From IMG/VR virus record IMGVR_UViG_3300011187_000006, positions 1 to 64,000 of that record: a stretch of 64,000 nt of DNA. One strand, written 5' to 3'. Under the pieces are notes generated by a model. The model was given only the letters and a program-made list of their open reading frames with translations, did not search any database and had not been told where the DNA came from. The stretch comes from an uncultured virus (IMG/VR IMGVR_UViG_3300011187_000006). Lineage: Duplodnaviria; Heunggongvirae; Uroviricota; Caudoviricetes. Below, in pieces: positions 2,815 through 41,520 of the stretch (its first letter is position 1; each line of letters begins with the position of its first letter). The position numbers were made by a program, and so were the translations under genes.

Positions 2815-4623
2815 TTATTTACCCAACCAGTCCCATCTACAAGATCCACAATCAAAAATTCTATAATATCCAATTTCATTCATTATTTCTATTTCTGTTT
2901 TATCTGAACTATACCCCATTTTAACAAGCTTGTCCTTCCTCCAGTTAAACCTATGTGTTTTTATACCATCAATAACCCAGTAATAATTAGGTACAGTTTG
3001 ATGATTTCTCTTAAATTTTAATACATCATACAGATTTCCCTTTCCCCTAGACGAATCACTATAACTCATTACATATTCTGGATTATAATTCTTTATGAAG
3101 AAATTAAATAACTTAGATGCACCACCTATAACAGATGTATTTATCTTATTACAGAACCTTAATAACTCCCATCTATTTGCAGAGGATTTATGACCTAAAG
3201 ATTTTCTAAGGCTACCAAAACTTATTAAACTAACTAGTTCTTTCTCAAAAAATAAGCCTATTTTAACTCTAGAACCAACAAATCCCTGTATATGATTGTC
3301 TAATAAAAACTTCTTAACTATAGAGTTATCTTTTATCTCTTTAATAACACACTTTCTAGCAAATATCCTATCTGATTTATTTAACTTATAAGATATAATA
3401 GATTTTACAATATCTTTCTTATAATCCCAATCATCTTCCCAAATGTGTATTAATTGAATATCAACATCTTCACACTCTTTACTTTTGTCTAAATGGTAAC
3501 TCTTGGTCTTAAACAAATCACTATGCCAATAAAGTCCATTAAACTCAAATGCTATTTTTAAAGAAGGTATATATATGTCTAACTCCTTTGATATAATATC
3601 CCTAGCATTTGAAACAATCTTTCCCTTGTATATGCTTTTTATAAAGTCTAATACTTCTAGCTCTTTATTAGATTTACCACTAGATATAGGATTACAATAT
3701 ACACATACACCACTATTTGATTTAATACGAAACCACATAAGTTGTCTATTTATACTAAAATGCTTATCACATGTTTCACACACTAGCTTAAACACAGTAT
3801 CAGTATTGTTATTATTTTGCTTCTTTGATATAAAGGATACTTCTTTTGGTAAAGAATCTATAAGGCTTTTCATTTGTGTATTATTATAAGAATCAATTCT
3901 TTTTTTAGCTATTGTATTTGCCTTAAAGTGATGGTCAACTCCCCATTTTTTCATTGATGATTCTTTTATCTTCTCATTCCTATAGTCATTAAATAATGAT
4001 ATACTACCCCAATTTTCTTCTAGTGTTTTCTTCTTCTTTTCATCTATTAACTTCTTTTCATCTAATGATTTGTCCTTATTAGAATTTGCCCTTGTTCTAA
4101 TTATATCCTCTCTATCTGTGTTGTGTGAAAAGGTACTTATGCTTTTCTTAGATATTAGATTTGATTGCTGAGCCCATTTAACACCATACCTATCATCCAT
4201 AGTGGAGTTAAATCTAGCCTTAACATCATTATTATGCATATAATGCTTACCATCCCATTTCTCTTTAATCTTATATTGTTCTTTATCTTTTATCTCTTTT
4301 GACTTCTTAGGATTGTCTACACCATATTTATCTATACAAGTATTTTTTCTTGATATAACTACACATTCTTTAGAACCACATGTTTTTCTATGTCCATTTT
4401 TAAAGCCTATGAACTTAGTTCTTTGTCCACAAAAACATAGATTCGGTATATTAATTCTATTTATATAATAATATATTTTTTCTGATGTTGTTAAGGGAAT
4501 ATCCATAAATGATTTACCAAGTGAGTCATTTATGTGTTTTAAATACAAAAAATTCTCACTTTTATTCAAAAAGCTACACAATGATCCTATATTGCATGTC
4601 TTTTTTTCTATTAGTTCTCGCAT
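2815..4623 (-). CDS. Hef-like homing endonuclease (KYGVDNP-type repeats, PD-(D/E)xK-like nuclease, C-terminal GNAT-like domain)
   Basis: ELDIYIPSLKIAFEFNGLYWHS, IHIWEDDW and WELLRFC..GGASKL motifs; paralog of 10992..12731. Confidence 0.7.
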   Translation of the reverse strand: MRELIEKKTCNIGSLCSFLNKSENFLYLKHINDSLGKSFMDIPLTTSEKIYYYINRINIPNLCFCGQRTKFIGFKNGHRKTCGSKECVVISRKNTCIDKYGVDNPKKSKEIKDKEQYKIKEKWDGKHYMHNNDVKARFNSTMDDRYGVKWAQQSNLISKKSISTFSHNTDREDIIRTRANSNKDKSLDEKKLIDEKKKKTLEENWGSISLFNDYRNEKIKESSMKKWGVDHHFKANTIAKKRIDSYNNTQMKSLIDSLPKEVSFISKKQNNNNTDTVFKLVCETCDKHFSINRQLMWFRIKSNSGVCVYCNPISSGKSNKELEVLDFIKSIYKGKIVSNARDIISKELDIYIPSLKIAFEFNGLYWHSDLFKTKSYHLDKSKECEDVDIQLIHIWEDDWDYKKDIVKSIISYKLNKSDRIFARKCVIKEIKDNSIVKKFLLDNHIQGFVGSRVKIGLFFEKELVSLISFGSLRKSLGHKSSANRWELLRFCNKINTSVIGGASKLFNFFIKNYNPEYVMSYSDSSRGKGNLYDVLKFKRNHQTVPNYYWVIDGIKTHRFNWRKDKLVKMGYSSDKTEIEIMNEIGYYRIFDCGSCRWDWLGK

Positions 4624-6841: not shown

Positions 6842-7207
6842 ATGGGAAAAAGAAACAAAAGATTTATAAAAACAATGGCAATGTTTATAAAAGAAAGTGC
6901 TGAAGTGGACGAAACTTATATAGAGACAATTGAATTTGATGATGAAACATTAACTATACACAAAATTGCGGATAGTCCATTAAAAACACAGTTTTATGCT
7001 AATACATTGGAAGGAGAATCTTACATTGATATAAGTAAGATATTATCTGATAACATGTTAATAGATGCTGTGTGGATAGAGAAAGGTGGTGATGAAGAAA
7101 GAATAGCTGATAAAATAGATTGTTTGTCTAAAACAGACAAAACTACTAAGGCTGGTTTTAAAACTTTCATAATGTATAAAATGAACTACCCATTAGCTAA
7201 AGACTAA
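6842..7207 (+). CDS. Hypothetical protein whose 3' end is altered by the IS605 insertion
   Basis: Last codons (MNYPLAKD) come from the IS right end; removing 7181-8959 restores ...IMYKINK-stop. Confidence 0.55.
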   Translation: MGKRNKRFIKTMAMFIKESAEVDETYIETIEFDDETLTIHKIADSPLKTQFYANTLEGESYIDISKILSDNMLIDAVWIEKGGDEERIADKIDCLSKTDKTTKAGFKTFIMYKMNYPLAKD

Positions 7208-8382
7208 TGTGTTTCGGGTTTCACAGAGTGTGCTTCTTCACAGAAGTCTGATTTACTCTCCACCTTTGTATTGGACAGTCCCTGCCCAAATATTTTTAAA
7301 CCTTCTTTTAGAATGTTTTTACTTGCATTTATGTCCCTATCATGAGTTTCACCACAAGGTGAGCAAGTCCATTCTCTGTGTGAAAGTTTTAATCCTTGAT
7401 TTATCCAACCACAACTATTACAAGTTTTTGATGATGGAAAAAATCTACCTATTTTAACAAGTTCTTTTCCATACCAATTACACTTATATTGAAGTAATGT
7501 AACAAAATTACCCCAACTTACATCAGCAATATGTTTAGATAACTTATGATTTTTAATCATACCCTTTACATTCAAATCTTCAACACTTATTAAATCATAA
7601 GATTCGACAAGTTCTCTACTAACTTTGTGTAAGGTATCCAATCTACAACTTGCTATCTTTTCGTGAATTTTAGCAACTTTGAGTCTTTGTTTTTTAAACC
7701 CATTACTACCTTTTTGTTTACGAGATAAATGCTGTTGTACTTTCTTTAATTCTCTAGCATACTTTTTAGTATATTTATTATTTTTATATTTTTTATTATC
7801 TGAGGTAATCACAAAATCTTTGATACCTAAATCAATACCCACTTTTTTACCAGTTTTAGGTAATTGTTCGATTTCTTGTTCGGTGAAAATAGAAACATAA
7901 TATTTACCTGTTGGTGTTTTAGTAATGCTCATTTTACCAATTTTGCCTTTAATTTTTCTCCTATCTAATTTAACTTTAATACCACCTTTAAATTTAGGTA
8001 TAATTATTTTATTTTCTTCTAATCTACCAAACTGAGGAATAGTGAATGTGTTTTTGTTTTTTCTTGATTTAAAATTAGGAAACTGAGCATTACCACGAAA
8101 AAAATTAACATAAGAAGTATCTAAACACCTTAAAGCAAATTGTATAGTCTGGCTATTAACTTCTTTTAACCATTTATAATCTTCATCTTTCTTTAATTCT
8201 GTTAAAGATTTTGCTTGAACATAATAGTTATCTGATTTCTTATCTTTTTGATATTGTTCTTTACGCTCATTAAGAAAATGGTTATATATGAATCTTGAAC
8301 ACCCAAAATGTTTAGACAACAAGATTTCTTGCTCTTTATTTGGGCAAATTCTAAATTCATATGACTTATTAACGACTTTCAT
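7204..8382 (-). CDS. tnpB: RNA-guided endonuclease TnpB
   Basis: RuvC motifs GIDLG, VEDL and DRDINA; Zn finger CxxC...CxxC; HTH N-terminus. Confidence 0.93.
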   Translation of the reverse strand: MKVVNKSYEFRICPNKEQEILLSKHFGCSRFIYNHFLNERKEQYQKDKKSDNYYVQAKSLTELKKDEDYKWLKEVNSQTIQFALRCLDTSYVNFFRGNAQFPNFKSRKNKNTFTIPQFGRLEENKIIIPKFKGGIKVKLDRRKIKGKIGKMSITKTPTGKYYVSIFTEQEIEQLPKTGKKVGIDLGIKDFVITSDNKKYKNNKYTKKYARELKKVQQHLSRKQKGSNGFKKQRLKVAKIHEKIASCRLDTLHKVSRELVESYDLISVEDLNVKGMIKNHKLSKHIADVSWGNFVTLLQYKCNWYGKELVKIGRFFPSSKTCNSCGWINQGLKLSHREWTCSPCGETHDRDINASKNILKEGLKIFGQGLSNTKVESKSDFCEEAHSVKPETH

Positions 8383-8482: not shown

Positions 8483-8896
8483 ATGTCTAAAAAATCTAAT
8501 TACAATTCAACAAATCGTTCGAAACATTATCTAAAATGTTATTTAATCTTTGTATGTAAATACCGAAAGAAATTACTTGTTGGTCAATTAAAAGATGATA
8601 TGAAACAATTATTATTAAATATTACTTCTAAAAGTGATTTTGAAATAGAAGTATTTGAAAGTGATATAGACCATATACATTTTTTAATTAGATATATACC
8701 TCGTTTATCTATTACATCAATTGTTAGAAAATTAAAACAAGAATCTACTTATCATATATGGCGTTCTACATATAGAAATTATTTATTTAATCATTTCTGG
8801 AAAGAAAAAACATTTTGGTCAGATGGTTATTTTGTTTGTTCAATTGGAGAAGCTAATCCAAATACCATCAAACAATATATTTTAACACAAGGTTAG
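8483..8896 (+). CDS. tnpA: IS200-type Y1 (HUH) transposase TnpA
   Basis: KYRK, DHIH, FWSDGYF and YI..Q motifs. Confidence 0.93.
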   Translation: MSKKSNYNSTNRSKHYLKCYLIFVCKYRKKLLVGQLKDDMKQLLLNITSKSDFEIEVFESDIDHIHFLIRYIPRLSITSIVRKLKQESTYHIWRSTYRNYLFNHFWKEKTFWSDGYFVCSIGEANPNTIKQYILTQG

Positions 8897-10991: not shown

Positions 10992-12731
10992 ATGGATAAT
11001 AAAACAAGAGAAGAATATAATACATTTATAGAAAAGGTAAGTCAACACTCAGTAAAAGAGTCTTGGGTTAAAAAGAATTTGCCCAATTTTTATGAATTTA
11101 CAAATAATTTAATTGGAATATCATTTACAGAAAAGGTATACTTAATAGAAAATGAAAAAGCTAAGTGTAAATCATGTGATGGTAATGTAAAATTTTTATC
11201 AATAAAAAGGGGATATAGGGAATTTTGTTCTTATAAATGTTCTAATAATAATTTAGCCTTAATTAGTACTAAAATATTATCTTTTAAAAAAAATAGCATA
11301 GATAAATGGGGTGTTGATAATCCATCTAAAAGTGAAGTGGTCAGAGATAAAATCAAAAAAAGTAAATCTATGATAGATTACGATAAAGTGAATGAAAAAG
11401 TGAAAAAGACAAATAATGAAAGATATGGAGTTGATAACGTATCGCAAATAGATGAAATAAAGGCAAAGAAAAAAATAACAACTAAACATAACTTTGGTGT
11501 TGATAATCCTTTTGAGTCAGAGGAAATTAAAAATATAATAAAGAAGCAAAATATGGTAAAATATGGTGTCACACATCATATGAAGTTGGGAAAAGTGATT
11601 GATAAACTTAAAAAAGACAATATAAATAGATGGGGTGTTGATAATTATACAAAAACTAAAATGTATAAAGAATTAATGTTTGAGAAATATAGAGGTTGTG
11701 ATATTAGAACTAACTTAAATACTAGTACGAATTATATGAATTACTTAGGTTTGGGAAAACATGAGATGTATTGTGATAACAAAGAAAACCACACATTTAT
11801 TACCAATTCTAGTTTATACCATTTTAGGAATAGACTAAATAATAAGCAATGCACTACATGTTTCCCAGTTATGAGTACTTCGTTTAAGGAATTAGAATTG
11901 TATAACTTTATAAAGAGCATATATAATGGACAAATTATACAATCCTATAGAGATGGTCTAGAAATAGACATATATTTACCTGAATTAAAAATTGGATTTG
12001 AGTTTAATGGATTATACTGGCATAGTGAATTATTCAAAGATAAAAACTATCACCTAGACAAAACCAAGCATTTTAACAAAAGGGATATAAGAATTATACA
12101 TATTTGGGAAGATGATTGGTCAGATAGAAGGGATATCTTAGAAAGTCAGATAAAAAATTGGATTGGATTAACGGATAATAAAATATATGGTAGAAAATGT
12201 GTTATAAAAGAAATAGATGATGTTAGTGAATATAGAAACTTCTTAAATAATAACCATATACAGGGATATGTATCTGCATCTTTAAAAATAGGACTATATT
12301 ACAATGATGAATTGGTGTCCTTGATGACATTTGACCATTTTGAAGGACGTAAGAAGATGTTAGACTCTGAATGGAATTTGTCAAGGTTTTGTAATAAAAT
12401 AAATACTAGTGTTATAGGAGGTGCTAGTAAATTAATATCATATTTTAATAAAACATATAAACCAACTCGTGTCATATCATTTGCAGATAAATCATGGTCA
12501 ACTGGTAATTTGTATACTAATCTAGGATTTTATATTAAAAATATCACATATCCCAATTATTCATATATAGTTAATAAAAATAGATCAAATAAACAAAAGT
12601 GGACTAAGAAAAAGCTTATTAAGATGGGTTATGATAAAAATTTATCAGAATCCAAAATAATGGAAGATAACCTTGGTTCTTATAAAATATTTGATTGTGG
12701 ACAGATAAAGTTTGAAAAAATATATAGATAA
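10992..12731 (+). CDS. Hef-like homing endonuclease
   Basis: Repeated (W/Y/F)GVDN, EIDIYLPELKIGFEFNGLYWHS and WEDDW motifs. Confidence 0.7.
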   Translation: MDNKTREEYNTFIEKVSQHSVKESWVKKNLPNFYEFTNNLIGISFTEKVYLIENEKAKCKSCDGNVKFLSIKRGYREFCSYKCSNNNLALISTKILSFKKNSIDKWGVDNPSKSEVVRDKIKKSKSMIDYDKVNEKVKKTNNERYGVDNVSQIDEIKAKKKITTKHNFGVDNPFESEEIKNIIKKQNMVKYGVTHHMKLGKVIDKLKKDNINRWGVDNYTKTKMYKELMFEKYRGCDIRTNLNTSTNYMNYLGLGKHEMYCDNKENHTFITNSSLYHFRNRLNNKQCTTCFPVMSTSFKELELYNFIKSIYNGQIIQSYRDGLEIDIYLPELKIGFEFNGLYWHSELFKDKNYHLDKTKHFNKRDIRIIHIWEDDWSDRRDILESQIKNWIGLTDNKIYGRKCVIKEIDDVSEYRNFLNNNHIQGYVSASLKIGLYYNDELVSLMTFDHFEGRKKMLDSEWNLSRFCNKINTSVIGGASKLISYFNKTYKPTRVISFADKSWSTGNLYTNLGFYIKNITYPNYSYIVNKNRSNKQKWTKKKLIKMGYDKNLSESKIMEDNLGSYKIFDCGQIKFEKIYR

Positions 12732-16377: not shown

Positions 16378-17352
16378 ATGGAAGAATTAGATCAATTATT
16401 TGACGGAAGTCTAGACACGAAAATGGACTTCTTAGAGGAAAAAAAGACCTCAAACAACGATGGAATTTATCGTGTTGACTTGACAAAGGTTAAGGACACT
16501 AAAAGAGGATATCGTTCAGTTGTTAGGTTTTTACCTAACCTAACAGAGGAAGGTAAATTAGGACAAGTAGCACTTGAAAAGATTTCACACTATGTAGAAA
16601 TTAAAGAACCAAGAGAATTAGGTGGTTATTATGACTCTCCTAAAAACTTTGGAGAACCATGTCCACTTACAAATCTTTTTTACCAGATGAAGAACTCTAA
16701 GAATGCAGTTCTTGTTGAGAAGGCGAACGTTCTTAACTACTCTAGAAAGTACTACTCTTATGTATTAGTACTTGAAGATGAGCAACAACCAGAGTTAGTT
16801 GGTAAGATTATGGTTATGCAGTATGGTAAGACAATTAAGGACAAGATTTCGGCAGAAAAGAATGGAGAAATCTCTGGTGAACCTTGTAATGTGTTTGAAC
16901 TAGCAGATGGTAAGGACTTTGTATTAATCGTAAAAGAAATCTCTACAGGAGATGCAACTTACCCTGATTACAAAATGAGTATGTTTAAGCAACAAACTAC
17001 ATCTCTACCAATCTACTTTAAAGAAACTAAAGAGTTTAAGAATGTACCTTTAGATGAAAATAACAAAGTAAGTCAAAAGGCACAAGGAAAGATTAAAGGA
17101 TTTTTATTAGATAGAGATCATAATGTAGAAGACTTCGGTCCTAAGCCACTTACTGACGAACAACATTCGAAAATTTCAGAAATTACGAATATATTACTTG
17201 GTAAGTCGTCTAATAGCTTTAATAGTGCTAATTCAACTAGTGCTTCTGAACAAAAGCCCGAATCAAGCGACTTCGATTTCGAGAATAACTTCACGGAAGG
17301 TAAAGAAGAAGCAGTTAGTACTGACGAAGATGACTTTTTTGACGACCTCTAG
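16378..17352 (+). CDS. Single-stranded DNA-binding protein, T4 gp32-like
   Basis: VVRFLP, CPL, GKDFVL and PDY motifs; acidic C-terminal tail DEDDFFDDL. Confidence 0.8.
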   Translation: MEELDQLFDGSLDTKMDFLEEKKTSNNDGIYRVDLTKVKDTKRGYRSVVRFLPNLTEEGKLGQVALEKISHYVEIKEPRELGGYYDSPKNFGEPCPLTNLFYQMKNSKNAVLVEKANVLNYSRKYYSYVLVLEDEQQPELVGKIMVMQYGKTIKDKISAEKNGEISGEPCNVFELADGKDFVLIVKEISTGDATYPDYKMSMFKQQTTSLPIYFKETKEFKNVPLDENNKVSQKAQGKIKGFLLDRDHNVEDFGPKPLTDEQHSKISEITNILLGKSSNSFNSANSTSASEQKPESSDFDFENNFTEGKEEAVSTDEDDFFDDL

Positions 17353-19017: not shown

Positions 19018-20103
19018 ATGAGTAATTCACCAGTAAGTGGTATTCTAGTAGACTTTAAATTAGAAGGAAGTGGTATTGTAAACTTTGATTCAACAGATCA
19101 GAAGTTCATGTTCTTCAAAGATGCTAATAAAAAAGATGATGATAGAATGCCAAAAGTAAAAGCATTGGCACAGATTAACGATAATTGTAACTATTCTAAA
19201 AAGAATTTCTTCTATAACGAGAAAGGTCAGTTAGATTTTAAGGTTAAGATATCAGCAGAATGTTTTAACAAGGCACTGTTTAAAGAAGATTACGTAGAAG
19301 ATAACCCAAGAGCTTTATATGATAAGAATACTCTTTATAACTACCTAGGATCTACACATGCAATCCTAAAGGGTTATTTGAAAGCAACAAAGGGTGAAAG
19401 TTTAAAAAGAAAAGGTCCAATAACCACAGGCAATATCCAACAGACATGTACTGCACTACCTACTTTACCACAAGCAGTTAAAGCAGGTAGTAAAAAGTCT
19501 CCAATCTCTGGAAAGGGTAGTACAAGCTTGTTTCAATATGAGTCTTTAGGAGATATAAAATATAGTGGTACTTCCTTTATAGACATTGGACAATTACAAT
19601 TTTTATCTTGTGATGCAGCTTTCGATAGATATGGATTTAATCCAGATAATGCTGAGATATTGATAAAGTCTTTGAATATGAATCTTAATAGCACTGATAC
19701 AAAGTTGGCATATTACAAATTATCAACATCATGTCTAGATCTTGCAGAATATGGTATTAAGCTGAATGATGATAATGTTGTATATTTGGTAAAAGAATAT
19801 ATATACCGTTTGTTAAAAACACAAATAAAAAGAAGTAATGCTAGTGCTGATGTAATTAGCGTTAGAATAAAGCTAGTAAGAGATCCTTATGTAGATACTA
19901 TGAGAAATCCAGAAGGTTGGGATGATATAAAAAATATGAAAGATATTAAAAATATCTCGTTTAAACCCTTTGATTTTTATGAGGAAGTTAGTGGTGTTAT
20001 AGTTGAAAAAACAGAAGAAAGAATTAATAAAGGTATCGAAAAAGAAAAGGCTATAATCAAAGAGGCGGCTGAAGAGAAAGCATTAAAGTCTAAAAAGAAA
20101 TAA
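19018..20103 (+). CDS. cas7: Divergent Cas7-like Cascade backbone protein
   Basis: First gene of the operon before cas6 and the array; N-terminal beta strand plus GIVNFD and KISAECF pattern of the Cas7 RRM; 361 aa. Confidence 0.65.
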   Translation: MSNSPVSGILVDFKLEGSGIVNFDSTDQKFMFFKDANKKDDDRMPKVKALAQINDNCNYSKKNFFYNEKGQLDFKVKISAECFNKALFKEDYVEDNPRALYDKNTLYNYLGSTHAILKGYLKATKGESLKRKGPITTGNIQQTCTALPTLPQAVKAGSKKSPISGKGSTSLFQYESLGDIKYSGTSFIDIGQLQFLSCDAAFDRYGFNPDNAEILIKSLNMNLNSTDTKLAYYKLSTSCLDLAEYGIKLNDDNVVYLVKEYIYRLLKTQIKRSNASADVISVRIKLVRDPYVDTMRNPEGWDDIKNMKDIKNISFKPFDFYEEVSGVIVEKTEERINKGIEKEKAIIKEAAEEKALKSKKK

Positions 20104-20112
20104 AAATAATTT

Positions 20113-20982
20113 ATGGAATATCTTAAACTAATATTCAAAGATGCCAAATTATTTAGGTATAATAAAGGCACTAAAGACAAGTCTATATATTCTGGACCTA
20201 AAGTTCATAGAGTTAATAGAAATAACTTATTTTCTTATGTAGAGCCAATAACACATCATCAATTGTCTAATTCAATTCATGTACTTCTAGGTGAGAGACC
20301 TGTTCCTCTTCATAGAAAAGTCTTTTATAAGAGAATAAGTGAAATTGATGACTTGGTGTCAAATTCACTTATTCGTGTAGAAACTGTGTTTAAACCTGTT
20401 TTTAAAAACAATAAGGTCAATAAGTATCTAGAGACTATATCAACTAAGAAAGCTTTCTACAATTCATTTAATCCATCAATTAAATTGAATTGGGAACTAG
20501 TTAGAAAATATATGACTTATAATAAAGGTCTAGCCTGGGGGTATTTTGTAAAGGAGTTTTCAAAAATACTTAAAAAGAACATTCTAGAATATAACTACAA
20601 AGACATAGAGTCAGAGATAAGAAATATAAAAGATGACACAAAAGTCAAAGCTGTTTTTGTAGCTATTTCTAGACTTGGTAAAACAGCATTGGTTAGAACT
20701 ATCCAGACTGGTAAAAATACTGTAACTTCATCAATACAAGATGGAAGTCCTATATTGGTAAATAGTGGTATTGAGAAGTTTGAAATATACAATGGTGAAA
20801 TATTAATACCAGTAAATGACTTTTTACGAGAAAGGGAGAGTGTGATGAAGCCATTTTCAACTATATTAGATGGTGGTATTGTATTTATTGATGGCATCAT
20901 TGATGAAGAAGATATAAGTAGCAGAGAGTTTGATAAATACAAAAAAGTATCTGATATATCAAATCAAATTATTAACCATTAA
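20113..20982 (+). CDS. cas5: Divergent, enlarged Cas5-like protein
   Basis: Lies between cas7 and cas6; YLKLIFKDAKLF N-terminal strand and C-terminal LDGG loop; 289 aa. Confidence 0.55.
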   Translation: MEYLKLIFKDAKLFRYNKGTKDKSIYSGPKVHRVNRNNLFSYVEPITHHQLSNSIHVLLGERPVPLHRKVFYKRISEIDDLVSNSLIRVETVFKPVFKNNKVNKYLETISTKKAFYNSFNPSIKLNWELVRKYMTYNKGLAWGYFVKEFSKILKKNILEYNYKDIESEIRNIKDDTKVKAVFVAISRLGKTALVRTIQTGKNTVTSSIQDGSPILVNSGIEKFEIYNGEILIPVNDFLRERESVMKPFSTILDGGIVFIDGIIDEEDISSREFDKYKKVSDISNQIINH

Positions 20983-20992
20983 AACATAAAAC

Positions 20993-21697
20993 ATGAGAAT
21001 TAAAATTAGTTTTACTCCAAACACTGAACCATTAATTAATAACCAGAAAATAGTAAATGGATTTATACATAAATGTCTAGGCAAGAACAACAAATATCAT
21101 AACTCTGTATCAGATTATACAATATCAAACCTAGAAGGTGGTGTGTTTATAAATGGTGGACGAGATGTAAATTTTCCAAATGGTGGCTTTATTGTTGTGA
21201 GTTCGTTGAAAGAAGATTTTATCGGTAAAGTCATAAATGGATTACATTTAGATGGTAATCTAGGAAAGGGTATGAAAGTAAATGGTATTGATTACATATC
21301 TGGAAATTTTTATAGTGGATATAATCATTTTAAAACACTTAGGAATGGTATTCTTCTAAAGACAAAATTAGGATTTTTAACATTAAAAGATAGTGGATTT
21401 GAAAAAGCTTTAGAAGAACAAACTAGATCCAAGTTTTCTAAGATAAATAAAGGATTAAGTTTCAAAGACTTCAAAATTGAAATTGGTCATAATAACAAAT
21501 CAAACAGAACTATAAATGTTTATGTAAATAACATCAGAAACAAATCTAGCTATTGTCCACTCACTATATATGGTGATAGAAGTCTTATTGAACATATATA
21601 TAATTATGGATTGGGTAATAGCACTGGTTCGGGGTTTGGGACTCTAATTAGAACTGATAATATTAGCAAATACCATCCAAAAGAAGAGCTATTTTAG
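20993..21697 (+). CDS. cas6: CRISPR RNA endoribonuclease Cas6
   Basis: C-terminal Gly loop GLGNSTGSGFG; adjacent to the array. Confidence 0.92.
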   Translation: MRIKISFTPNTEPLINNQKIVNGFIHKCLGKNNKYHNSVSDYTISNLEGGVFINGGRDVNFPNGGFIVVSSLKEDFIGKVINGLHLDGNLGKGMKVNGIDYISGNFYSGYNHFKTLRNGILLKTKLGFLTLKDSGFEKALEEQTRSKFSKINKGLSFKDFKIEIGHNNKSNRTINVYVNNIRNKSSYCPLTIYGDRSLIEHIYNYGLGNSTGSGFGTLIRTDNISKYHPKEELF

Positions 21698-21719
21698 TAG
21701 TTTTTATATCCTAAATGAC

Positions 21720-21754
21720 ACTTATATATCTAGCTGAAAGCTAGATATATAAGT
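21720..21754. promoter_or_regulatory. Perfect 16-bp hairpin in the array leader
   Basis: ACTTATATATCTAGCT-GAA-AGCTAGATATATAAGT, 3 nt before the first repeat. Confidence 0.6.
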
Positions 21755-21757
21755 TAG

Positions 21758-22520
21758 GATAGTAATCATATTAATACGCAAGGTAATCACAACGAACTTG
21801 TAATTCCGAACACGGAAAGCCTAGATAGTAATCATATTAATACGCAAGGTAATCACAACTATTCTCTACATTAGTATGCCCCAAAATACGATAGTAATCA
21901 TATTAATACGCAAGGTAATCACAACACTTATAGCTAAACGAATTATACCGTTTTTGATAGTAATCATATTAATACGCAAGGTAATCACAACACTTACAAC
22001 GCAAGCTAGAAAATCTTGCAAGATAGTAATCATATTAATACGCAAGGTAATCACAACTCGATAATTAATATTTTGAATGAGCGTAAAGATAGTAATCATA
22101 TTAATACGCAAGGTAATCACAACCATATAACCTTTAGTCGCTTGTTAATCATAGATAGTAATCATATTAATACGCAAGGTAATCACAACGATAGCGACTC
22201 TGATGCCTACGTAAAGAACGATAGTAATCATATTAATACGCAAGGTAATCACAACAGATACTCTCAAGTTAATAACTGAATTAGTGATAGTAATCATATT
22301 AATACACAAGGTAATCACAACCACAAATCAAAGTTCCAACAACTCGATTATGATAGTAATCATATTAATACGCAAGGTAATCACAACCCATAAAAATTTG
22401 TAGCAAAAGACCTCCTAGATAGTAATCATATTAATACGTAAGGTAATCACAACGGTAGCTTAATAAGTAGCTTCATCATTCTTTGATAGTAATCATATTA
22501 ATACGTAAGGTAATTATCTA
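21758..22520 (+). CRISPR. CRISPR array 1: 12 repeats (GATAGTAATCATATTAATACGCAAGGTAATCACAAC, 36 nt), 11 spacers of 30-31 nt
   Basis: 66-nt periodicity read directly; first 8 repeats identical, last one degenerate. Confidence 0.97.
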
Positions 22521-22533
22521 CATAGATAAAAAT

Positions 22534-22546
22534 AGTTCTTTGACAT
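22534..22546 (+). promoter_or_regulatory. boxA-like antitermination motif between the two arrays
   Basis: AGTTCTTTGACAT resembles the boxA consensus (GYTCTTTAACA / GTTCTTTGA). Confidence 0.4.
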
Positions 22547-22618
22547 TTTAAAACAAACCACTAAATAATTAAATGTAGTAATTACAACACTTTATTGACA
22601 TATGCTTTAATAGCACTA

Positions 22619-23511
22619 TATAGAAATCATATTAATACATAGGGTAATCACAACCTTAACACAAATATCTACCAAAAGGCTTAGATAGTGATCATATTAA
22701 TACGTAAGGTAATCACAACGAGATGAGAAGAAATGTTTCTGAGGTGATTGATAGTAATCATATTAATACGTAAGGTAATCTCAACTGGTAATTATTTTAT
22801 AAAGCATGGTAGCATGATAGTAATCATATTAACACGTAAGGTAATCACAACAATATAGATGATGTTCTGCCTCCTACTTTAGATAGTAATCATATTAATA
22901 CATAAGGTAATCACAACTAAATACACGTTTAAACTGTCTGAATATGAAATATTAATCATATTAATACGCAAGGTAATCACAACGAATAGTACTTTAGATG
23001 TTTCTTAACTTCTGATAGTAATCATATTAATACGCAAGGTAATCACAACATCCAATCAACTACTAAAAAAAGTCCATTTGATAGTAATCATATTAATACA
23101 CAAGGTAATCACGACACAATTTCAGCCATTATCATAGCTTCTGTTGATGGTGATCATATTAATACGCAAGGTAATCACAACTACTCTTCTCCCAGGAGTA
23201 AAAGTTATGTAGATAGTAATCATATTAATACGTAAGGTAATCACAACAGAAAGTTTATTAATCGTCCAAAAAACTTTGATAGTAATCATATTAATACATA
23301 AGGTAATCACAACCAAAAATAGGGTGAAAGTAATACTAAGCTAGATAGTAATCATATTAATACGTAAGGTAATCACAACTACGAAGTAGACTTAACACCC
23401 CTTTTTGGAGATAGTAACCATATTAATACATAAGGTAATCAAAACCGACCTTCGCAACAATCGAAGCTAATTATTAGTAGTAATCATATTAATACATAAG
23501 GTAATCATAAA
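22619..23511 (+). CRISPR. CRISPR array 2: 14 more variable repeats, 13 spacers of 29-30 nt
   Basis: Same repeat family with point variants; terminal repeat degenerate. Confidence 0.97.
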
Positions 23512-23565
23512 TATATATAGCAATTGTTTTTTTTTATTAGTATATTCGCAGTCTAAAATATTAAT

Positions 23566-25815
23566 ATGATAGTAGCAAAGTCGAATAATGGTAATAATAT
23601 ATCATTAGAGGAACATTCAAAGGAAGTCAGTGATAAGGCTGTGAAAGAATTAAAAAAATTACCAAATGTGAAAGAACACTTAATGGTAAACATAAAGGTA
23701 GCTTCTCTATTGCACGATATTGGGAAGTCAACAGACTCTTTCCAAAAACATATAAATGGAGAGAAAGTAGATAAGAAACATAAAAACAAGTACTTACATC
23801 AACAAGTTTCATGGGCTTTTGTAGATACTTATTTCGATTATGTAAATTATTTCAAAGACAACGAAATAAAGAATTGTGTTGGTAAAAACATAATACCCAA
23901 TCTAATATATTGGCATCATGGTATCTTGGACAATGAGGGGATTTGTGCCAAAGATGTTTTAGGTAGTATACCATCTAGTGATATAGATACCATGAAGAAA
24001 GAGCTTGGTAAACTAATTGACAGTAAGTATATCATTAATAATCCTAAAAAAAATAACAATACTAGACCTGATTACTTTTTATTTAACAAAGATAGGAAAG
24101 AAAAAACAGACAACCTCAACCGAGATATAACATTAATTAGAATGATATTAGTTTATTCTGATAGAACTATATCTGGTGCTGATGATATAAATCTTAAAAA
24201 AGCAAACAAGTTCTTATTTGAAGTTTGTCACTTCCCTGACGACAAAAGATTCAAAGAGCAAAAAAAGATTATAAATGATATTAAGGATGAGGATAAAACT
24301 ACAATAATTAAAGCACCTACAGGATTTGGTAAAACTATGTTAGGTCTTATGTGGAGTGAGAAGTCAGATAAAAAGTTATTGTGGGTATGTCCTAGAAATA
24401 ATATAGCAATATCAACATACTATTCTATTGTAAAAGAATTAGAAGACTCTGAAAAGAAAGTAAATATAGAACTAAGGTATGCTGGGAAGGTTCAAAAGTC
24501 AAGCTTTAATGGAGAAGGAAAAGAAGCAGATATCATTATTACAAACATTGATTATTATCTAAGACCATATAGTAATGCTGGTAAAGACATGTCTCTTATG
24601 TATTTTATAATACATAGTGATGTTATATTTGATGAGTATCATGAAAATGTAACTGATTTACCTATATTTAGCCTCTTTATAAACCTTATGAGAGTTAGAA
24701 ACATAAAGACAGATTCTAGAACTTTGTTATTAAGTGCTACACCCATCGATATAAGCCATTTGTGGACTACTAATTCAAACAAAACTAAGATTATACCCAA
24801 TGATAAAAATCACTTACCTTCTATACATAATAAAAAATATAATGTTAATATTGTAAATAAGATACCTAATACAATATCAAACAATGAGATATTATTTGTT
24901 AATTCAATAAAAGAATCACAAGAAATTGCAAAGAAATTAACAAATGCTATATTAATACACTCTAATTTCATAGAAGGTGATAAATCAAAGATGTTTGATA
25001 AATTGTTAAATGATTATGGTAAGGATTCTAAAACAACTAACAGAAAGCCTTACATATCAACACTTATTTTACAAGCGGCTCTTGATATATCTTTTAATAA
25101 TCTATATGAGATACCATTATCCCCAGAATCCACATTACAACGGATAGGAAGATGTAACAGATGGGGTCGGAATAAAACTGCTACTATAAATATTATAGAC
25201 ACTTGTCCCACCACATCAAATGGCTATGTCGTTGATATAAAATATAATGAGAGTTTAAGAAAACTTTGGGTTGATCATTTAAAATTATTGAGTGGTAGTT
25301 CCTTAACACTTGACGAGATATATGTACATTATAATGATTTTAATATTACAAATAATACTGAAATAGTAGATTACATAGATGACAGTCTTCATCAAAGTAA
25401 TGAAAGTTCGAGTAACAATATATACCCAGTCAAGCATTATAACACAACACCACCAAGTTATATGTCGGCAAATTCTAACCCACTTAGAAGCAACGGTTCA
25501 GAAGTATTTTTTATAGTACAGGACGTTAAAGGCAAATGGGTTGGTCCATTCACCAAGAGCATGTACGATAGTTTTGATAAAGATTTTAATGAAGGTGGTA
25601 CCGCCATTTCGGTAGGTAAGATGATAAAAATAATAAAAAATATATCATCACCTACTTCTGGGTATAAATATAATTATGGTATAAATAGTAATAAACATTA
25701 TAAAAATATTAAAATAGACGATCTTAGAAGAAAAGCTAGGTTAGATAAATCACCCTATATAGCTATTAATTTCTCTTACGACTATAGGCTAGGGATAATT
25801 AAAAAGATTATTTAA
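23566..25815 (+). CDS. cas3: Cas3 HD nuclease-SF2 helicase
   Basis: EEH, HDIGK, WHHG and SD HD motifs; APTGFGKT, DEYH, SATP and QRIGRCNR helicase motifs. Confidence 0.95.
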   Translation: MIVAKSNNGNNISLEEHSKEVSDKAVKELKKLPNVKEHLMVNIKVASLLHDIGKSTDSFQKHINGEKVDKKHKNKYLHQQVSWAFVDTYFDYVNYFKDNEIKNCVGKNIIPNLIYWHHGILDNEGICAKDVLGSIPSSDIDTMKKELGKLIDSKYIINNPKKNNNTRPDYFLFNKDRKEKTDNLNRDITLIRMILVYSDRTISGADDINLKKANKFLFEVCHFPDDKRFKEQKKIINDIKDEDKTTIIKAPTGFGKTMLGLMWSEKSDKKLLWVCPRNNIAISTYYSIVKELEDSEKKVNIELRYAGKVQKSSFNGEGKEADIIITNIDYYLRPYSNAGKDMSLMYFIIHSDVIFDEYHENVTDLPIFSLFINLMRVRNIKTDSRTLLLSATPIDISHLWTTNSNKTKIIPNDKNHLPSIHNKKYNVNIVNKIPNTISNNEILFVNSIKESQEIAKKLTNAILIHSNFIEGDKSKMFDKLLNDYGKDSKTTNRKPYISTLILQAALDISFNNLYEIPLSPESTLQRIGRCNRWGRNKTATINIIDTCPTTSNGYVVDIKYNESLRKLWVDHLKLLSGSSLTLDEIYVHYNDFNITNNTEIVDYIDDSLHQSNESSSNNIYPVKHYNTTPPSYMSANSNPLRSNGSEVFFIVQDVKGKWVGPFTKSMYDSFDKDFNEGGTAISVGKMIKIIKNISSPTSGYKYNYGINSNKHYKNIKIDDLRRKARLDKSPYIAINFSYDYRLGIIKKII

Positions 25816-28530: not shown

Positions 28531-28809
28531 ATGGAATATTTAAAAGAATGGAAAGAGTTCAATCCTGTATTAGATTTAAAAGTAAAGGAGTATGTGAGTA
28601 TGAATAAGTACAACCTACCAGATTTATGGAACAAGAGTTTGTCTGAGGACGAAAATGTAGATTCTATGATTGAGTACTTTACTAAGTATCCAAATGAAAT
28701 GGTACATTCTATAAGCAATGATAACATAAGAAAAGCGAGTCAGAAATCTAACTCGCTTGAATATGTGCCTATTCTACAGAATATAGGGGGTCATTCTTTC
28801 GAAGCCTAA
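28531..28809 (+). CDS. Hypothetical protein (MEYLKEWKEF N-terminus)
   Basis: ORF track. Confidence 0.55.
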   Translation: MEYLKEWKEFNPVLDLKVKEYVSMNKYNLPDLWNKSLSEDENVDSMIEYFTKYPNEMVHSISNDNIRKASQKSNSLEYVPILQNIGGHSFEA

Positions 28810-30947
28810 ATTTCTTCGTCCTTGGGCTTAGAAACTCTCTTCTTTCTTTTCTTACCAAGACTAACTACTGACTCATCCAAATCTTTATCATAGCTAATTG
28901 TTAGTGTAGAACCCTCTTTAGGACTTTCTTGGATGATAAACTCTGTTACATAATCATCAATCCAAGTCTGTAAAGCTCTTTTAAGAGGTCTAGCACCACT
29001 ATCTAAGTTATAACCAACATCTAGAAGGTGTTCCTTCAATTCATCTGTTACAATTAGATTATATCCAATATCAGAACCTCTTTTAAGTGTCTTAGTAATT
29101 TCAAGTTCAACAATCTTCATAATGTCATCTCTGTCCAAATCTTTGAAGTAGATAATATCATCTAATCTATTGATAAACTCTGGTGGAAAAGCCACACTTA
29201 ATTCCTTTTGTAAAATAGCTTTAACTTTATTGTGTTCTTTCTCAACTGATGTTTTTGTTGAGAAGCCTAGTCCAGTTCCAAAACTCTTAACCTTTCTAGT
29301 ACCAACGTTTGATGTCATCAGAATAACACAATTCTTAAAAGATACTTTTCTTCCATGTGAATCTGTTACAACTCCATCATCTAACATTTGTAAAAATAGA
29401 TTGACAACATCAGGGTGGGCTTTCTCAATTTCATCAAAAAGAATAACAGAGTAAGGCTTTCTCCTTACCTTATCCAATACATTACTATCTTCATATCCAA
29501 CATACCCAGGTGCAGAACCTTGGATTCTAGTAAGGGAGACTTTCTCCATGTATTCAGACATATCTAAACGAATAATAGAATCCTCTGAGTCAAACATATA
29601 CTTAGCAATTTGTTTAGCCAATTCAGTTTTACCAACTCCACTATTACCAATTAGTATTCCTGAGAAAATTGGCTTGTTAGGATCTTTCATACCAACTCTA
29701 CCTCTCTGTATAGCTTGTACTACTTTTTTAACTGCTTTGTCTTGACCAACAACGTTATTTGAAATAACATCAAACATTTTGGCTAATTTAGAATTTTCTT
29801 TTTGCCCAACCTTACTAACAGGAACTCCAGTTATCATAGATACTACTTGTGCAACATCTTCTTGTGACACAACTTGTGGGTTATTTTTAGTATCTTCTTC
29901 CCACTTATCTCTAGCCAATTCTAATTCGGCATCAAGTTCTTTCTCAACATCTCTAAGTCTAGCAGCTTGTTCATATTTTTGAGACCTAATTACTTTTTTC
30001 TTTTCTTCTTTAATATCCTCAATCTTTTTCTCGATTTCAGTTATCCTTTTAGGAACAACTATATTTGAGATATGAACTCTTGATCCTGCCTCATCTAATG
30101 CATCAATTGCTTTGTCTGGTAAGAATCTATCACTCATATATCTGACTGTAAGATCAACACAAGATTCAATTGCCTCTTGTGAGTAAACCACATTATGATG
30201 CTTCTCATATTTATCTTTGATGTTTCCTATGATTTGTAAAGTTTCCTCTGGTGTGGCAGGTTCTACGATTACTTTTTGAAATCTTCTTTCCAAAGCAGCA
30301 TCTTTCTCAACATGCTTTCTGTATTCGTCTAATGTTGTTGCACCAATTATCTGAATTTCACCACGTGCTAATGCTGGTTTGAACATATTGGAGGCATCTA
30401 GGCTACCAGATGCTCCACCAGCACCAACCATAGTATGAATTTCATCGATAAAAAGAATAACATTTGGCTCATCTTCTATTTCACTCATAAGAGCCTTAAC
30501 TCTTTCTTCAAATTGACCCCTATATTTAGTACCAGCTACCATAGATGCTAAGTCTAACATAACAATTCTTTTATCAAAAAGAACTCTACTTACCTTTCTC
30601 TGTACAATTCTAAGTGCTAGACCTTCTGCAATAGAAGATTTACCAACACCAGCTTCACCAATGAGAATAGGATTGTTCTTTTTTCTCCTAGATAAAATTT
30701 GAGAAACACGTTCTATTTCTTTATCTCTACCAACAATAAGATCTAGCTTACCATCTTCTGCCATATTAGTAAGATCTCTACTATATGTATCAAGGACAGG
30801 AGTCTTAGATTTACCATTCTTCTTGTCAGGGACTTTAAAATCTTCATCTGGTGGTCCATCATCTGCAATAGAGTTTTTCACATCGATAGTTTTTCTTAAG
30901 TAATCTTTCCCTTCTTTGTCTTTTTGCATAATTTGATTTTTATTCAT
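28806..30947 (-). CDS. clpC: ClpC/ClpB-family AAA+ ATPase lacking the N-terminal Clp repeat domain
   Basis: Two Walker A motifs (GEAGVGKS, GNSGVGKT), FIDEIH, FDEIEKAH, UVR-type middle domain, PGYVGY. Confidence 0.9.
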   Translation of the reverse strand: MNKNQIMQKDKEGKDYLRKTIDVKNSIADDGPPDEDFKVPDKKNGKSKTPVLDTYSRDLTNMAEDGKLDLIVGRDKEIERVSQILSRRKKNNPILIGEAGVGKSSIAEGLALRIVQRKVSRVLFDKRIVMLDLASMVAGTKYRGQFEERVKALMSEIEDEPNVILFIDEIHTMVGAGGASGSLDASNMFKPALARGEIQIIGATTLDEYRKHVEKDAALERRFQKVIVEPATPEETLQIIGNIKDKYEKHHNVVYSQEAIESCVDLTVRYMSDRFLPDKAIDALDEAGSRVHISNIVVPKRITEIEKKIEDIKEEKKKVIRSQKYEQAARLRDVEKELDAELELARDKWEEDTKNNPQVVSQEDVAQVVSMITGVPVSKVGQKENSKLAKMFDVISNNVVGQDKAVKKVVQAIQRGRVGMKDPNKPIFSGILIGNSGVGKTELAKQIAKYMFDSEDSIIRLDMSEYMEKVSLTRIQGSAPGYVGYEDSNVLDKVRRKPYSVILFDEIEKAHPDVVNLFLQMLDDGVVTDSHGRKVSFKNCVILMTSNVGTRKVKSFGTGLGFSTKTSVEKEHNKVKAILQKELSVAFPPEFINRLDDIIYFKDLDRDDIMKIVELEITKTLKRGSDIGYNLIVTDELKEHLLDVGYNLDSGARPLKRALQTWIDDYVTEFIIQESPKEGSTLTISYDKDLDESVVSLGKKRKKRVSKPKDEEI

Positions 30948-35574: not shown

Positions 35575-35711
35575 ATACTATATATTCAAATATAACAGTT
35601 TAGTTTGAATTATATGTTGTTTTTTGTGTTAATTTTTTTTGTTGCTTATTAACAACAAAAAGTGCTAAAATGTTGCTTATTAACAACATTTAGTTTTAAC
35701 TATAATTTTTG

Positions 35712-35784
35712 TCGAAGATGTCCGATTCGAACAGCAATTCGATGTCCCAAACATCGTGTGTTACCAGATTACACTACACCCTCG
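35712..35784 (-). tRNA. tRNA-Pro(TGG), imperfect T stem
   Basis: Anticodon arm CGATG-TTTGGGA-CATCG. Confidence 0.7.
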
Positions 35785-35793
35785 CTATACTTG

Positions 35794-35867
35794 TTACCCC
35801 AGTAGGGTTCGAACCTACAATCTCCTGGACCAAAGCCAGACGTGTTAACCAATTACACTATAGAGCA
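35794..35867 (-). tRNA. tRNA-Gln(TTG)
   Basis: Cloverleaf; TCTGG-CTTTGGT-CCAGG. Confidence 0.88.
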
Positions 35868-35873
35868 TTTTTG

Positions 35874-35945
35874 CAGTCCATAGGGGATTCGAACCCCTAT
35901 CTTCCGAGAGACAGTCGGAAATGATAACCTTTACACTAATGGACT
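35874..35945 (-). tRNA. tRNA-Asp(GTC)
   Basis: Cloverleaf; TCCGA-CTGTCTC-TCGGA. Confidence 0.88.
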
Positions 35946-35957
35946 ATTAAAAATTTG

Positions 35958-36031
35958 TCGAGAAGACAGGAATCGAACCTGCTAACTGATGCCTCCAATG
36001 CACCCGTGCTTATAACCTTAGTCACTTCTCG
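35958..36031 (-). tRNA. tRNA-Pro(TGG)
   Basis: CGAGAAG/CTTCTCG acceptor; GGTGC-ATTGGAG-GCATC. Confidence 0.78.
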
Positions 36032-36040
36032 ATTAACTTG

Positions 36041-36114
36041 TTACCCCAGCAGGGTTCGAACCTGCAATCTTCTGGACCAAAACCAGATGTGTTAGCCAAT
36101 TACACTATGGGGCA
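36041..36114 (-). tRNA. tRNA-Gln(TTG)
   Basis: Cloverleaf; TCTGG-TTTTGGT-CCAGA. Confidence 0.9.
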
Positions 36115-36126
36115 ATTTAATATTAG

Positions 36127-36199
36127 CAGCTCTGATGGGAATCGAACCCACTCCGTTACGTGAGACAGACGTACATCTTAACCATTTGACCTCAGAGCT
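36127..36199 (-). tRNA. tRNA-Asp(GTC)
   Basis: Cloverleaf; TACGT-CTGTCTC-ACGTA. Confidence 0.88.
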
Positions 36200-39912: not shown

Positions 39913-39913
39913 G

Positions 39914-39999
39914 TACCGCTAGTTGGACTTGAACCAACAATAAGATTTCTCTAACTTGGATATGAGCCAAGCACAATTACCACATCTGTTCATAGCGAT
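39914..39999 (-). tRNA. tRNA-Met(CAT) (or Ile2) with a long variable arm
   Basis: CTTGG-CTCATAT-CCAAG; variable region TTAGAGAAATCTTAT. Confidence 0.75.
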
Positions 40000-40003
40000 T
40001 TAG

Positions 40004-40093
40004 TACACCAGGTGGGATTTGAACCCACGTTGTTCACCTCAAAGGGTATCAGATTTTAAGTCTGATGCGTTTCATCCACTTCGCCACTGGTGC
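40004..40093 (-). tRNA. tRNA-Leu(TAA)
   Basis: TCAGA-CTTAAAA-TCTGA; long variable arm. Confidence 0.88.
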
Positions 40094-40103
40094 ATTTTTT
40101 TAG

Positions 40104-40177
40104 AGCTGACAGAGGGATTCAAACCCACAACTTTTTGATTACAAATCAAAATGCTCTACCAATTGAGCTATGTCAGC
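40104..40177 (-). tRNA. tRNA-Thr(TGT)
   Basis: TTTGA-TTTGTAA-TCAAA. Confidence 0.85.
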
Positions 40178-40184
40178 ATATTAG

Positions 40185-40256
40185 AGTACCTAGAGGGATT
40201 CAAACCCCCGTACGATGGGTTGCAGCCACCTACCTAAATCACTCGGTCATAGGTAC
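40185..40256 (-). tRNA. tRNA-Cys(GCA)
   Basis: GGTGG-CTGCAAC-CCATC; U discriminator. Confidence 0.85.
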
Positions 40257-40262
40257 ATTTTG

Positions 40263-40336
40263 TAGTTCTGGTTGGATTCGAACCAACGACTTCTTCCTTG
40301 TAAGGGAAGCATTCTGAACCCCTGAATTACAGAACT
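40263..40336 (-). tRNA. tRNA-Val(TAC)
   Basis: CTTCC-CTTACAA-GGAAG. Confidence 0.88.
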
Positions 40337-40345
40337 TTTTATTTG

Positions 40346-40426
40346 TACCCTAGATAGGACTCGAACCTATATTTTCAGCTTCCAATTACCCTTAATTGTT
40401 TAGAAGACAATCGGGACTACTAAGGC
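40346..40426 (-). tRNA. Non-canonical tRNA-Arg(TCT) lacking a D arm
   Basis: GCCTTAG/CTAGGGT acceptor; ATTGT-CTTCTAA-ACAAT only ~8 nt after it; long variable region; normal T arm. Confidence 0.7.
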
Positions 40427-40436
40427 ATTTATTTTG

Positions 40437-40526
40437 TACCAGTGGTCGGACTCGAACCGACAATGTTTACCTCTTGGGTACTAGTTCCTAAGACTAGCGT
40501 GTTTCATCCAATTTCACCACACTGGT
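40437..40526 (-). tRNA. tRNA-Leu(TAG)
   Basis: CTAGT-CTTAGGA-ACTAG; long variable arm. Confidence 0.88.
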
Positions 40527-40532
40527 ATTTAT

Positions 40533-41426: not shown

Positions 41427-41434
41427 ATTATTTG

Positions 41435-41508: not shown

Positions 41509-41520
41509 TTGTAATATCTG

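Follow-up and report, generated by a model that had tools for sequence, protein, structure and literature searches.

Among the CRISPR-Cas systems described so far, the closest to the locus presented here is type I-F2, known from Shewanella putrefaciens CN-32 (PDB 5O6U, 5O7H, 9G44) and from plasmid loci of Acinetobacter lwoffii and Legionella longbeachae. Two reports present type I-F2 as the most compact of the type I systems and as being under development for genome editing (PMC12956352, PMC11343773). According to the accessible text of the first of these, its Cas5 alone reads the GG protospacer-adjacent motif (PAM) via an alpha-helical (AH) domain (Q113, K253), while its Cas7 subunits direct the strands and themselves bring in Cas3, Cas8 and Cas11 being absent. 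The same text gives as typical features of I-F2 a Cas6f, a Cas2-3 fusion, cas1f and 27-nt repeats with 32-nt spacers (PMC12956352). Here, we analyse a locus of four cas genes and two CRISPR arrays in a stretch of 64,000 nucleotides (nt; hereafter the window). The window covers the initial 64 kb of a single-contig record of 78,739 bp, 28.7% G+C, from an uncultured virus (IMG/VR IMGVR_UViG_3300011187_000006). We propose that the locus is probably a type I system of the I-F2 kind that is carried by a phage, serves interference only, has neither Cas8 nor Cas11 and is a divergent relative of I-F2. The phage origin is backed by the classification of the record as a virus and by PHROG matches to phage genes within it, including those for an endolysin, a sigma factor, an NAD-dependent DNA ligase, a ribonucleotide reductase, homing endonucleases and a head-tail adaptor.

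Cas7 and Cas3 are closest to type I-F2 proteins

An earlier reading, made from the letters alone (the sequence-only reading), had proposed a set of four cas genes, and all of the corresponding open reading frames (ORFs) were recovered on the plus strand (Table 1). Their products of 361, 289, 234 and 749 amino acids (aa) sum to 1,633 aa. The genes for Cas7, a Cas5-like protein and Cas6 adjoin a CRISPR array, as expected of a type I effector, and Cas3 combines an HD nuclease with a superfamily 2 (SF2) helicase, which marks the system as type I.

The Cas7 assignment, which had rested on gene position and weak motifs, is now carried by homology. Cas7 matches the NCBIfam model for Cas7fv with an E-value of 1e-24 (87.4 bits) and the PADLOC models for Cas7fv and Cas7f at 1e-19 and 8e-16, respectively. 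A profile built from 13 lineage members retrieves only two sequences from the PDB, both of them I-F2 Cas7 (E 5.5e-34), and alignment with hhalign against plasmid Cas7fv gives a probability of 99.6% (E 1e-24, 269 columns). The AlphaFold2 model (mean predicted local distance difference test score, pLDDT, of 82) yields I-F2 Cas7 chains as its top six Foldseek matches (E ~1e-15), followed by I-A Cas7 at 1e-7. All four plasmid matches to Cas7 found by tblastn are annotated as cas7fv, and Cas7 relatives are assigned to the Pfam family PF28157, which Pfam 38.1 calls 'Cas7fv-like'. Of the clusters in the Atlas, the nearest (84, 763 and 204 members) are 58–84% viral. The Lys/Glu-rich C-terminal helix of Cas7 has no counterpart in the shorter Cas7fv proteins (Table 1); a basic tail likewise occurs in the consensus sequence built from the 13 lineage members, and the helix might help to hold the displaced strand or contact Cas3.

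Cas3 matches TIGR01596 (cas3_HD) with 47.5 bits (cut-off 43.45) and TIGR01587 with 80 bits, and all of its motifs are intact: the HD motif, GFGKT (Walker A), DEYH, SAT and QRIGRCNR (motif VI). Within PADLOC, the helicase fits Cas3fv best (5e-48), whereas the full length including the N-terminal HD domain fits Cas3b (4e-38). The best PDB match is the I-F2 Cas3 (9g44_A, 6e-32), and the next Cas3 follows at 6e-4. BLASTP against the 985-aa I-F2 Cas2-3 (E 2e-34) covers subject residues 120–792; because this alignment begins at residue 120, Cas3 can be regarded as the same protein minus the Cas2 part. Related Cas3 proteins measure 737–817 aa. The sequence-only reading had regarded a lineage with such a stand-alone Cas3 as not I-F-like. 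This is correct insofar as a Cas2 fusion is lacking, but the relationship it implied does not hold, since the I-F2 Cas3 is by far the closest relative and the Cas7 profile matches only Cas7fv in the PDB.

A canonical Cas6 accompanies the I-F2-like proteins

The third protein is an ordinary Cas6, and here the same reading, which had set it apart from I-F, was correct. Cas6 matches the Pfam family Cas_Cas6_C with 45.5 bits (cut-off 23), TIGR01877 with 53 bits, below the cut-off of 58.65, and PADLOC Cas6b at 1e-36. It contains a glycine-rich loop, GLGNSTGSGFG, at residue 206, and BLASTP shows no similarity to Cas6f (E 0.59).

The Cas6b match, the Cas3b match over the full length of Cas3, unstructured repeats of the kind found in canonical Cas6 systems and weak Cas7b matches (1e-5 to 1e-6) from the Cas7 proteins of two relatives could together indicate a reduced I-B system or an I-B/I-F2 chimaera, in which Cas8b was lost independently and the resemblance to I-F2 is convergent. 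We consider this very unlikely. Cas7 is far nearer to Cas7fv, the Cas3 helicase fits Cas3fv best and finds the I-F2 Cas3 as its best PDB match, and the best structural match of the Cas5-like protein is Cas5fv. Moreover, the locus has no large-subunit gene, its Cas7 matches Cas7fv and Cas7f rather than Cas7b, and a swap of Cas6 alone would explain the I-B-like features.

The Cas5-like protein is predicted to carry a helical insertion

The 289-aa protein encoded between cas7 and cas6 has no family match in Pfam, NCBIfam, PADLOC or PHROGs. Its predicted structure has a RAMP fold with a helical insertion at residues ~122–215; Cas5fv is the best structural match, with modest scores. As judged from the comparison of models, the insertion is topologically placed like the PAM-reading AH domain of Cas5fv. 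The insertion that the sequence-only reading had suggested, as a possible substitute for Cas8, is thus present in the model. The protein belongs to a large family comprising at least 526 clusters at 50% identity (E<=1e-3). Matches in the ESM Atlas (small GTPases and unrelated folds) were uninformative, the Atlas model having a pLDDT of 0.30, and the sole PDB matches of the Cas5-like profile, to the mitochondrial ribosomal protein mL64/CRIF1 (E 0.003, over a helical stretch), were taken as chance.

The four-gene module is conserved

Profile searches with the Cas5-like protein retrieved 13 loci in IMG/VR, one in a genome collection and 51 in metagenomes. The 13 IMG/VR loci comprise four of this phage and nine relatives, which lie on contigs of 15–597 kb and include a near-identical pair. 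In the nine distinct relatives examined first, all four proteins are conserved together at 27–42% identity. We further compiled a set of 37 loci, consisting of the window and 36 fetched loci of at least 6 kb each, all of which were fetched via a tblastn match to Cas5; many of the 36 lie on contigs of 100–600 kb. Cas7 and Cas6 were found in all 37 loci, Cas3 in 35 and, with a simple ORF caller, Cas5 in 31; the two loci without Cas3 start with cas7 where the contig ends. No fifth family is common to three or more of the 37 loci once spurious ORFs that span the arrays are set aside. Arrays with the repeat end AAGGGAATCACAAC (up to three mismatches) are present in 33/37. The most frequent gene order, found exactly in 22/37 loci, is cas3-cas7-cas5-cas6-array, which is also the order in canonical I-F2 loci; the order of the window, with cas3 after the arrays, occurs in four. 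Maintaining four full-length genes in dozens of loci at 27–42% identity requires purifying selection. Among GenBank phages, tblastn found no relative of Cas7 or Cas5, and no similar DNA was detected.

Genes for Cas8, Cas11 and adaptation are absent from the module

Neither the window locus nor the 36 further loci contain a gene for Cas8, Cas11 or adaptation, in agreement with what had been noted for the window alone. Beyond the locus, cas8 was sought with the Csy1 model, which found nothing in five records, four of them complete relatives. Cas1 is absent from all 11 records searched (the phage's own record, nine virus records and one metagenome-assembled genome) and Cas2 from all five. Four of the nine virus records are at least 98% complete (310–597 kb), and all four lack Cas1, Cas2 and Csy1.

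It would follow from a second alternative that the four genes are not self-sufficient, and that a large (perhaps also a small) subunit is supplied in trans by the phage or its host. The fraction of the phage genome in hand (11–20%), the use of one Cas8 model for the complete relatives and three neighbouring ORFs without a known family leave some room for such a subunit. We regard it as quite unlikely, as the neighbouring ORFs are not conserved in the nine loci, there is no fifth family in the 37 loci, I-F2 works without Cas8, and the Cas5-like protein has, in its model, the kind of insertion that replaces Cas8.

Two arrays with leader-end spacer turnover

The interval from cas6 to cas3 contains two CRISPR arrays, which keep strictly to a 66-nt period and together comprise 26 repeats and 24 spacers. 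A G follows 22/24 spacers, and the unit is therefore best taken as a 36-nt repeat plus a 30-nt spacer. The repeats of array 1 have zero to one mismatch except for the last, and those of array 2 zero to five. The degenerate last repeat of each array (six mismatches in array 1, five in array 2) places both leaders on the left and indicates transcription in the direction of the cas genes. A few bases ahead of the first repeat, the leader of array 1 holds a perfect 16-bp palindrome (DNA fold of -13.1 kcal/mol, z -8.5; none of 200 shuffles folded as well). Similar stems were found in three more of eight leaders tested (leaders of L010, L011 and L013, with z values of -7.3, -4.2 and -3.8 among them); of the remaining ones, one had a weaker stem (z -2.5) and three were not significant. 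The palindrome may serve to terminate the cas operon, or it may act as a leader element in spacer integration. Of the sigma-70-like sites in the region, the best, TTGACA-18-AATAAT (11/12), lies in the leader of array 2; overall, the number of these sites equals that expected by chance.

Where a consensus could be built, the repeats of relatives are 36 nt long; their 3' half is conserved, their 5' half varies, and they are essentially unstructured (minimum free energy 0 to -4.6 kcal/mol). All lineage arrays examined (the window, L005 and L010–L017) have 36-nt repeats, spacers of ~30 nt and a period of 66, which is not I-F geometry. The repeats of several relatives start with GTTG or ATTG, and all end with CAAC. 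No CRISPR repeat family of Rfam was matched at the gathering threshold. Additional arrays were also observed: in some relatives a second array lies far from the cas genes, in a 597-kb phage (L025) ~30 kb away at 595.7–596.5 kb, the end of the record, and others (L054, L055) have an extra array between cas3 and cas7.

Comparison of the copies of this phage reveals spacer turnover. All 24 spacers recur in a contig of 100% identity. At its leader end, array 1 of the window reads spacers 1–3, then 4. In two contigs that are ~96% identical in the flanks, three different leader-end spacers precede spacers 4, 9, 10 and 11; in a 99%-identical contig, another new first spacer is followed by one common to the ~96% contigs and then by spacer 4. 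The trailer-end spacers are common to the phage copies. Lineage-specific leader spacers combined with common trailer spacers usually signify polarised acquisition. In array 2, the first spacer is kept and the copies differ internally, which is more in line with differential loss or recombination than with newly acquired spacers.

Leader-end turnover without cas1 or cas2 in the module points to adaptation genes outside of it, either those of the host or phage genes that were not recovered. The combination of 36-nt repeats and 30-nt spacers is the classic array geometry of type II, not of type I-F. On a reading that is possible, albeit doubtful, this geometry suggests that the phage allows its arrays to be loaded in trans by a host adaptation module of another type. 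The 3' half of the repeat, which is conserved, would then serve the phage Cas6 and Cas5, and the variable 5' half would track the host integrase.

The same data bear on a third alternative, namely that the locus is a decaying or repurposed remnant that has ceased to cut DNA, for example a crRNA (CRISPR RNA) sponge or regulator. The lack of adaptation genes, the failure to find a target and the up to five mismatches in the repeats of array 2 would agree with decay. However, the nuclease and helicase motifs of Cas3 are intact, the genes are full length in dozens of loci, and array 1 has nearly identical repeats and gains spacers at its leader end, which makes a remnant highly improbable.

Spacer matches

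The spacers have no match outside the arrays in the 78.7-kb record or the related loci examined, and searches against GenBank phages and plasmids returned chance-level matches only. Matches to Lak megaphages (E 0.04 or worse) lie in an array-free region and were rejected. Against five related huge-phage records, only array-to-array similarity was found, and an exact scan of IMG/VR with the first spacer (one of 24) recovered only the array itself. With regard to the host, arrays with the 3' motif of the repeat were found in none of 401 sampled Bacteroidia genomes (at most two matches per genome, as in the control), a group that may not be that of the host.

Assignment and proposed mechanism

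Several results weigh against the assignment as a divergent I-F2 relative that works without a large subunit. Cas7, at 87 bits, stays far under the equivalog cut-off of 200 bits of the NCBIfam Cas7fv model. The Cas5-like family shows no resemblance in sequence to Cas5fv (hhalign probability 0.45%, E 0.13), and its profile finds no PDB sequence that we take as a real relative. Csy1 was the sole Cas8 model searched in the complete relatives. The phage genome is recovered to only ~11–20%, so that cas1, cas2 or a large-subunit gene could lie elsewhere in it. Lastly, no protospacer was found, and hence no PAM, target or direct sign of interference.

Given the homologies of Cas7 and Cas3 to I-F2, we propose the same scheme, with a canonical Cas6 and a Cas2-free Cas3 as changes. 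The arrays would be transcribed rightward from their left-hand leaders. Cas6 is expected to cut the unstructured 36-nt repeats near the conserved 3' end (AAGGNAATCACAAC), which would leave a short 5' handle and a 30-nt guide. On this crRNA, a minimal Cascade of ~5–6 Cas7, one Cas5-like subunit and Cas6 could assemble, in which the helical insertion of the Cas5-like protein would read the PAM and open the duplex. The stand-alone HD-helicase Cas3, uncoupled from Cas2, may then dock on the Cas7 backbone as in I-F2 and degrade the target, most likely a competing phage or another mobile element, or host DNA. New spacers would be put in by adaptation machinery encoded outside the module.

Genomic surroundings

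CheckV estimates a completeness of 11% for the 78,739-bp record and of 20% for a 141.5-kb contig of the same phage, from which the whole genome may be very large. Taken together, the two estimates imply a genome of ~700 kb, near the largest phage genomes reported.

The sequence-only reading had described the flanks as ordinary phage genes. This applies to the gp32-like single-stranded DNA-binding protein (SSB) and other phage genes around the module, but not to three adjoining ORFs (367, 131 and 649 aa; Table 1), which have no match in Pfam, NCBIfam, PADLOC or PHROGs; the 131-aa ORF reaches Csa5 at E 0.06 only. We considered these ORFs as a hidden Cas8 or Cas11 and rejected them, as no homologue stands beside the module in nine related loci; they are likewise absent from the families common to the 37 loci. 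The SSB is not co-conserved beside the module in the nine distinct related loci either.

Further genes of the window include 19 tRNA genes according to ARAGORN and 20 according to Rfam, with duplicated Gln and Asp genes and no suppressor tRNA seen. A transposase pair inside the phage genome resembles, in size and arrangement, a tnpB + tnpA element of the IS200/IS605 type.

Table 1. Coordinates of the CRISPR-Cas features, followed by those of other genes in the window
Feature	Position	Strand	Description
cas7	19018..20103	+	361 aa, Cas7fv-like backbone subunit
Cas7 C-terminal helix	19993-20100		residues 326-360; Lys/Glu-rich; absent from 315-329-aa Cas7fv proteins
cas5-like	20113..20982	+	289 aa; RAMP core with helical insertion ~122-215; proposed PAM reader
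cas6	20993..21697	+	234 aa; canonical Cas6 endoribonuclease, not Cas6f
Leader of array 1	21698..21757	+	holds palindrome 21720-21754
CRISPR array 1	21758..22520	+	12 repeats of 36 nt, 11 spacers
Inter-array leader of array 2	22521..22619	+	sigma-70-like site 22540-22569
CRISPR array 2	22620..23511	+	14 repeats, 13 spacers
cas3	23566..25815	+	749 aa; HD nuclease, SF2 helicase, C-terminal domain; no Cas2 fusion
gp32-like SSB	16378-17352		PHROG match
ORF, 367 aa	17392-18495		low-complexity; just upstream of module; no family match
ORF, 131 aa	18503-18898		coiled coil; just upstream of module; no family match
ORF, 649 aa	25933-27882		downstream of module; no family match
Lon-like ATP-dependent protease	28806-30947	-	713 aa; phrog_4871, E 4e-220; near CRISPR locus
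Transposase pair	7204-8382; 8483-8896	-; +	phrog_506, E 2e-136; phrog_2577, E 6e-37
Two large paralogous homing-endonuclease genes	2815-4623; 10992-12731	-; +	phrog_3339, E 1e-113 and 6e-120
Three tRNA clusters	35711-36199; 39913-41605; 52591-53987	-	

Novelty and significance

We found no description of the four-gene lineage in the literature searched, which included the accessible portions of PMC11656645, PMC12669027, PMC7162821, PMC10910872 and PMC11127173; Al-Shayeb et al. 2022 (Cell) lay outside that coverage. Extended Data Fig. 1 of PMC12669027 is said, in the part of that article available, to depict an 'intermediate' I-F variant placed between I-F1 and I-F2, which could already be this lineage. 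It is possible, albeit doubtful, that the locus represents a sister lineage of I-F2 which is separate from it, occurs mainly in viruses and merits a variant or subtype name of its own. On this reading it would be the smallest complete type I interference module so far (four proteins, 1,633 aa), with arrays that continue to gain spacers although complete genomes with the module encode no Cas1 or Cas2.

On paper, the lineage does the job of I-F2 with ~220 fewer residues and with a different Cas6, Cas5 and repeat. It thus offers a second, independent test of a Cascade without Cas8 and Cas11 and possibly a smaller scaffold. It would also represent a widespread weapon of large phages that is still annotated as 'hypothetical protein'. 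Finally, spacer turnover at the leader end, together with complete relatives that carry neither cas1 nor cas2, opens adaptation in trans to a direct test.

Comparison with known systems

The overall organisation of the module is reminiscent of type I-F2. Both lack Cas8 and Cas11, have homologous Cas7 and Cas3 HD-helicase proteins, share the gene order in most relatives and are linked to mobile elements. The Cas5-like model adds a helical insertion in the RAMP core, with Cas5fv as the best fold match. When comparing individual components, there are substantial differences. Canonical I-F2 loci on two plasmids encode cas1f, cas2/3 (985 aa), cas7fv (329 aa), cas5fv (337 aa) and cas6f (200 aa). Whereas I-F2 uses Cas6f/Csy4, the present Cas6 is canonical, and Cas3 has 749 aa without an N-terminal Cas2, as opposed to 985 aa. 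The locus has no cas1, and its unstructured 36-nt repeats with 30-nt spacers differ from the 27–28-nt hairpin repeats with 32-nt spacers of I-F2. The Cas5-like protein has 289 aa compared with 337 and no detectable sequence similarity, and Cas7 carries an extra C-terminal helix. In total, the four proteins amount to 1,633 aa here and to 1,851 aa in the A. lwoffii I-F2 locus.

These differences bear on a further alternative, that the module is a plain member of the defined subtype I-F2 which differs only by sequence divergence. Membership would account for the specific closeness of Cas7 and Cas3 to I-F2 proteins, the missing Cas8 and Cas11, the gene order and the Pfam 38.1 label of Cas7. Nevertheless, we consider it unlikely, in view of the absence of Cas6f, of a Cas2 fusion and of cas1f, the 36/30 instead of 27/32 geometry, a Cas7 under the equivalog cut-off and a Cas5 that is unrecognisable by sequence. 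As four typical I-F2 features are missing and Cas5 is not recognisable, we place the system outside I-F2 proper, but it does not amount to a categorically new subtype either. The undescribed compact subtype envisaged by the sequence-only reading is thus better understood as a divergent relative of I-F2 than as an unrelated subtype.

With type I-B, the module shares unstructured repeats, an ordinary Cas6 of the Cas6/Cas6b type and a Cas3 that carries its HD domain at the N terminus and has no Cas2. In contrast to I-B, it has no Cas8b, cas1, cas2 or cas4, and its Cas7 and Cas3 are much closer to I-F2.

With regard to other phages, the I-F1 system of Vibrio phage ICP1 is, in the available text, likewise an I-F-family system carried and used by a phage (PMC10161043), but ICP1 has Cas8f/Csy1, Cas2/3 and an adaptation module, all of which are absent here. 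According to the accessible part of Al-Shayeb et al. 2020, nearly all CRISPR systems of phages are without Cas1, Cas2 and Cas4 (PMC7162821). The present module resembles the CRISPR-Cas systems of huge phages described there in this respect and in its occurrence in very large phage genomes. However, the only type I variant in that part of the report is an I-C system without Cas6, in which a helicase replaces Cas3 (PMC7162821), whereas the module presented here has both a Cas6 and a full Cas3.

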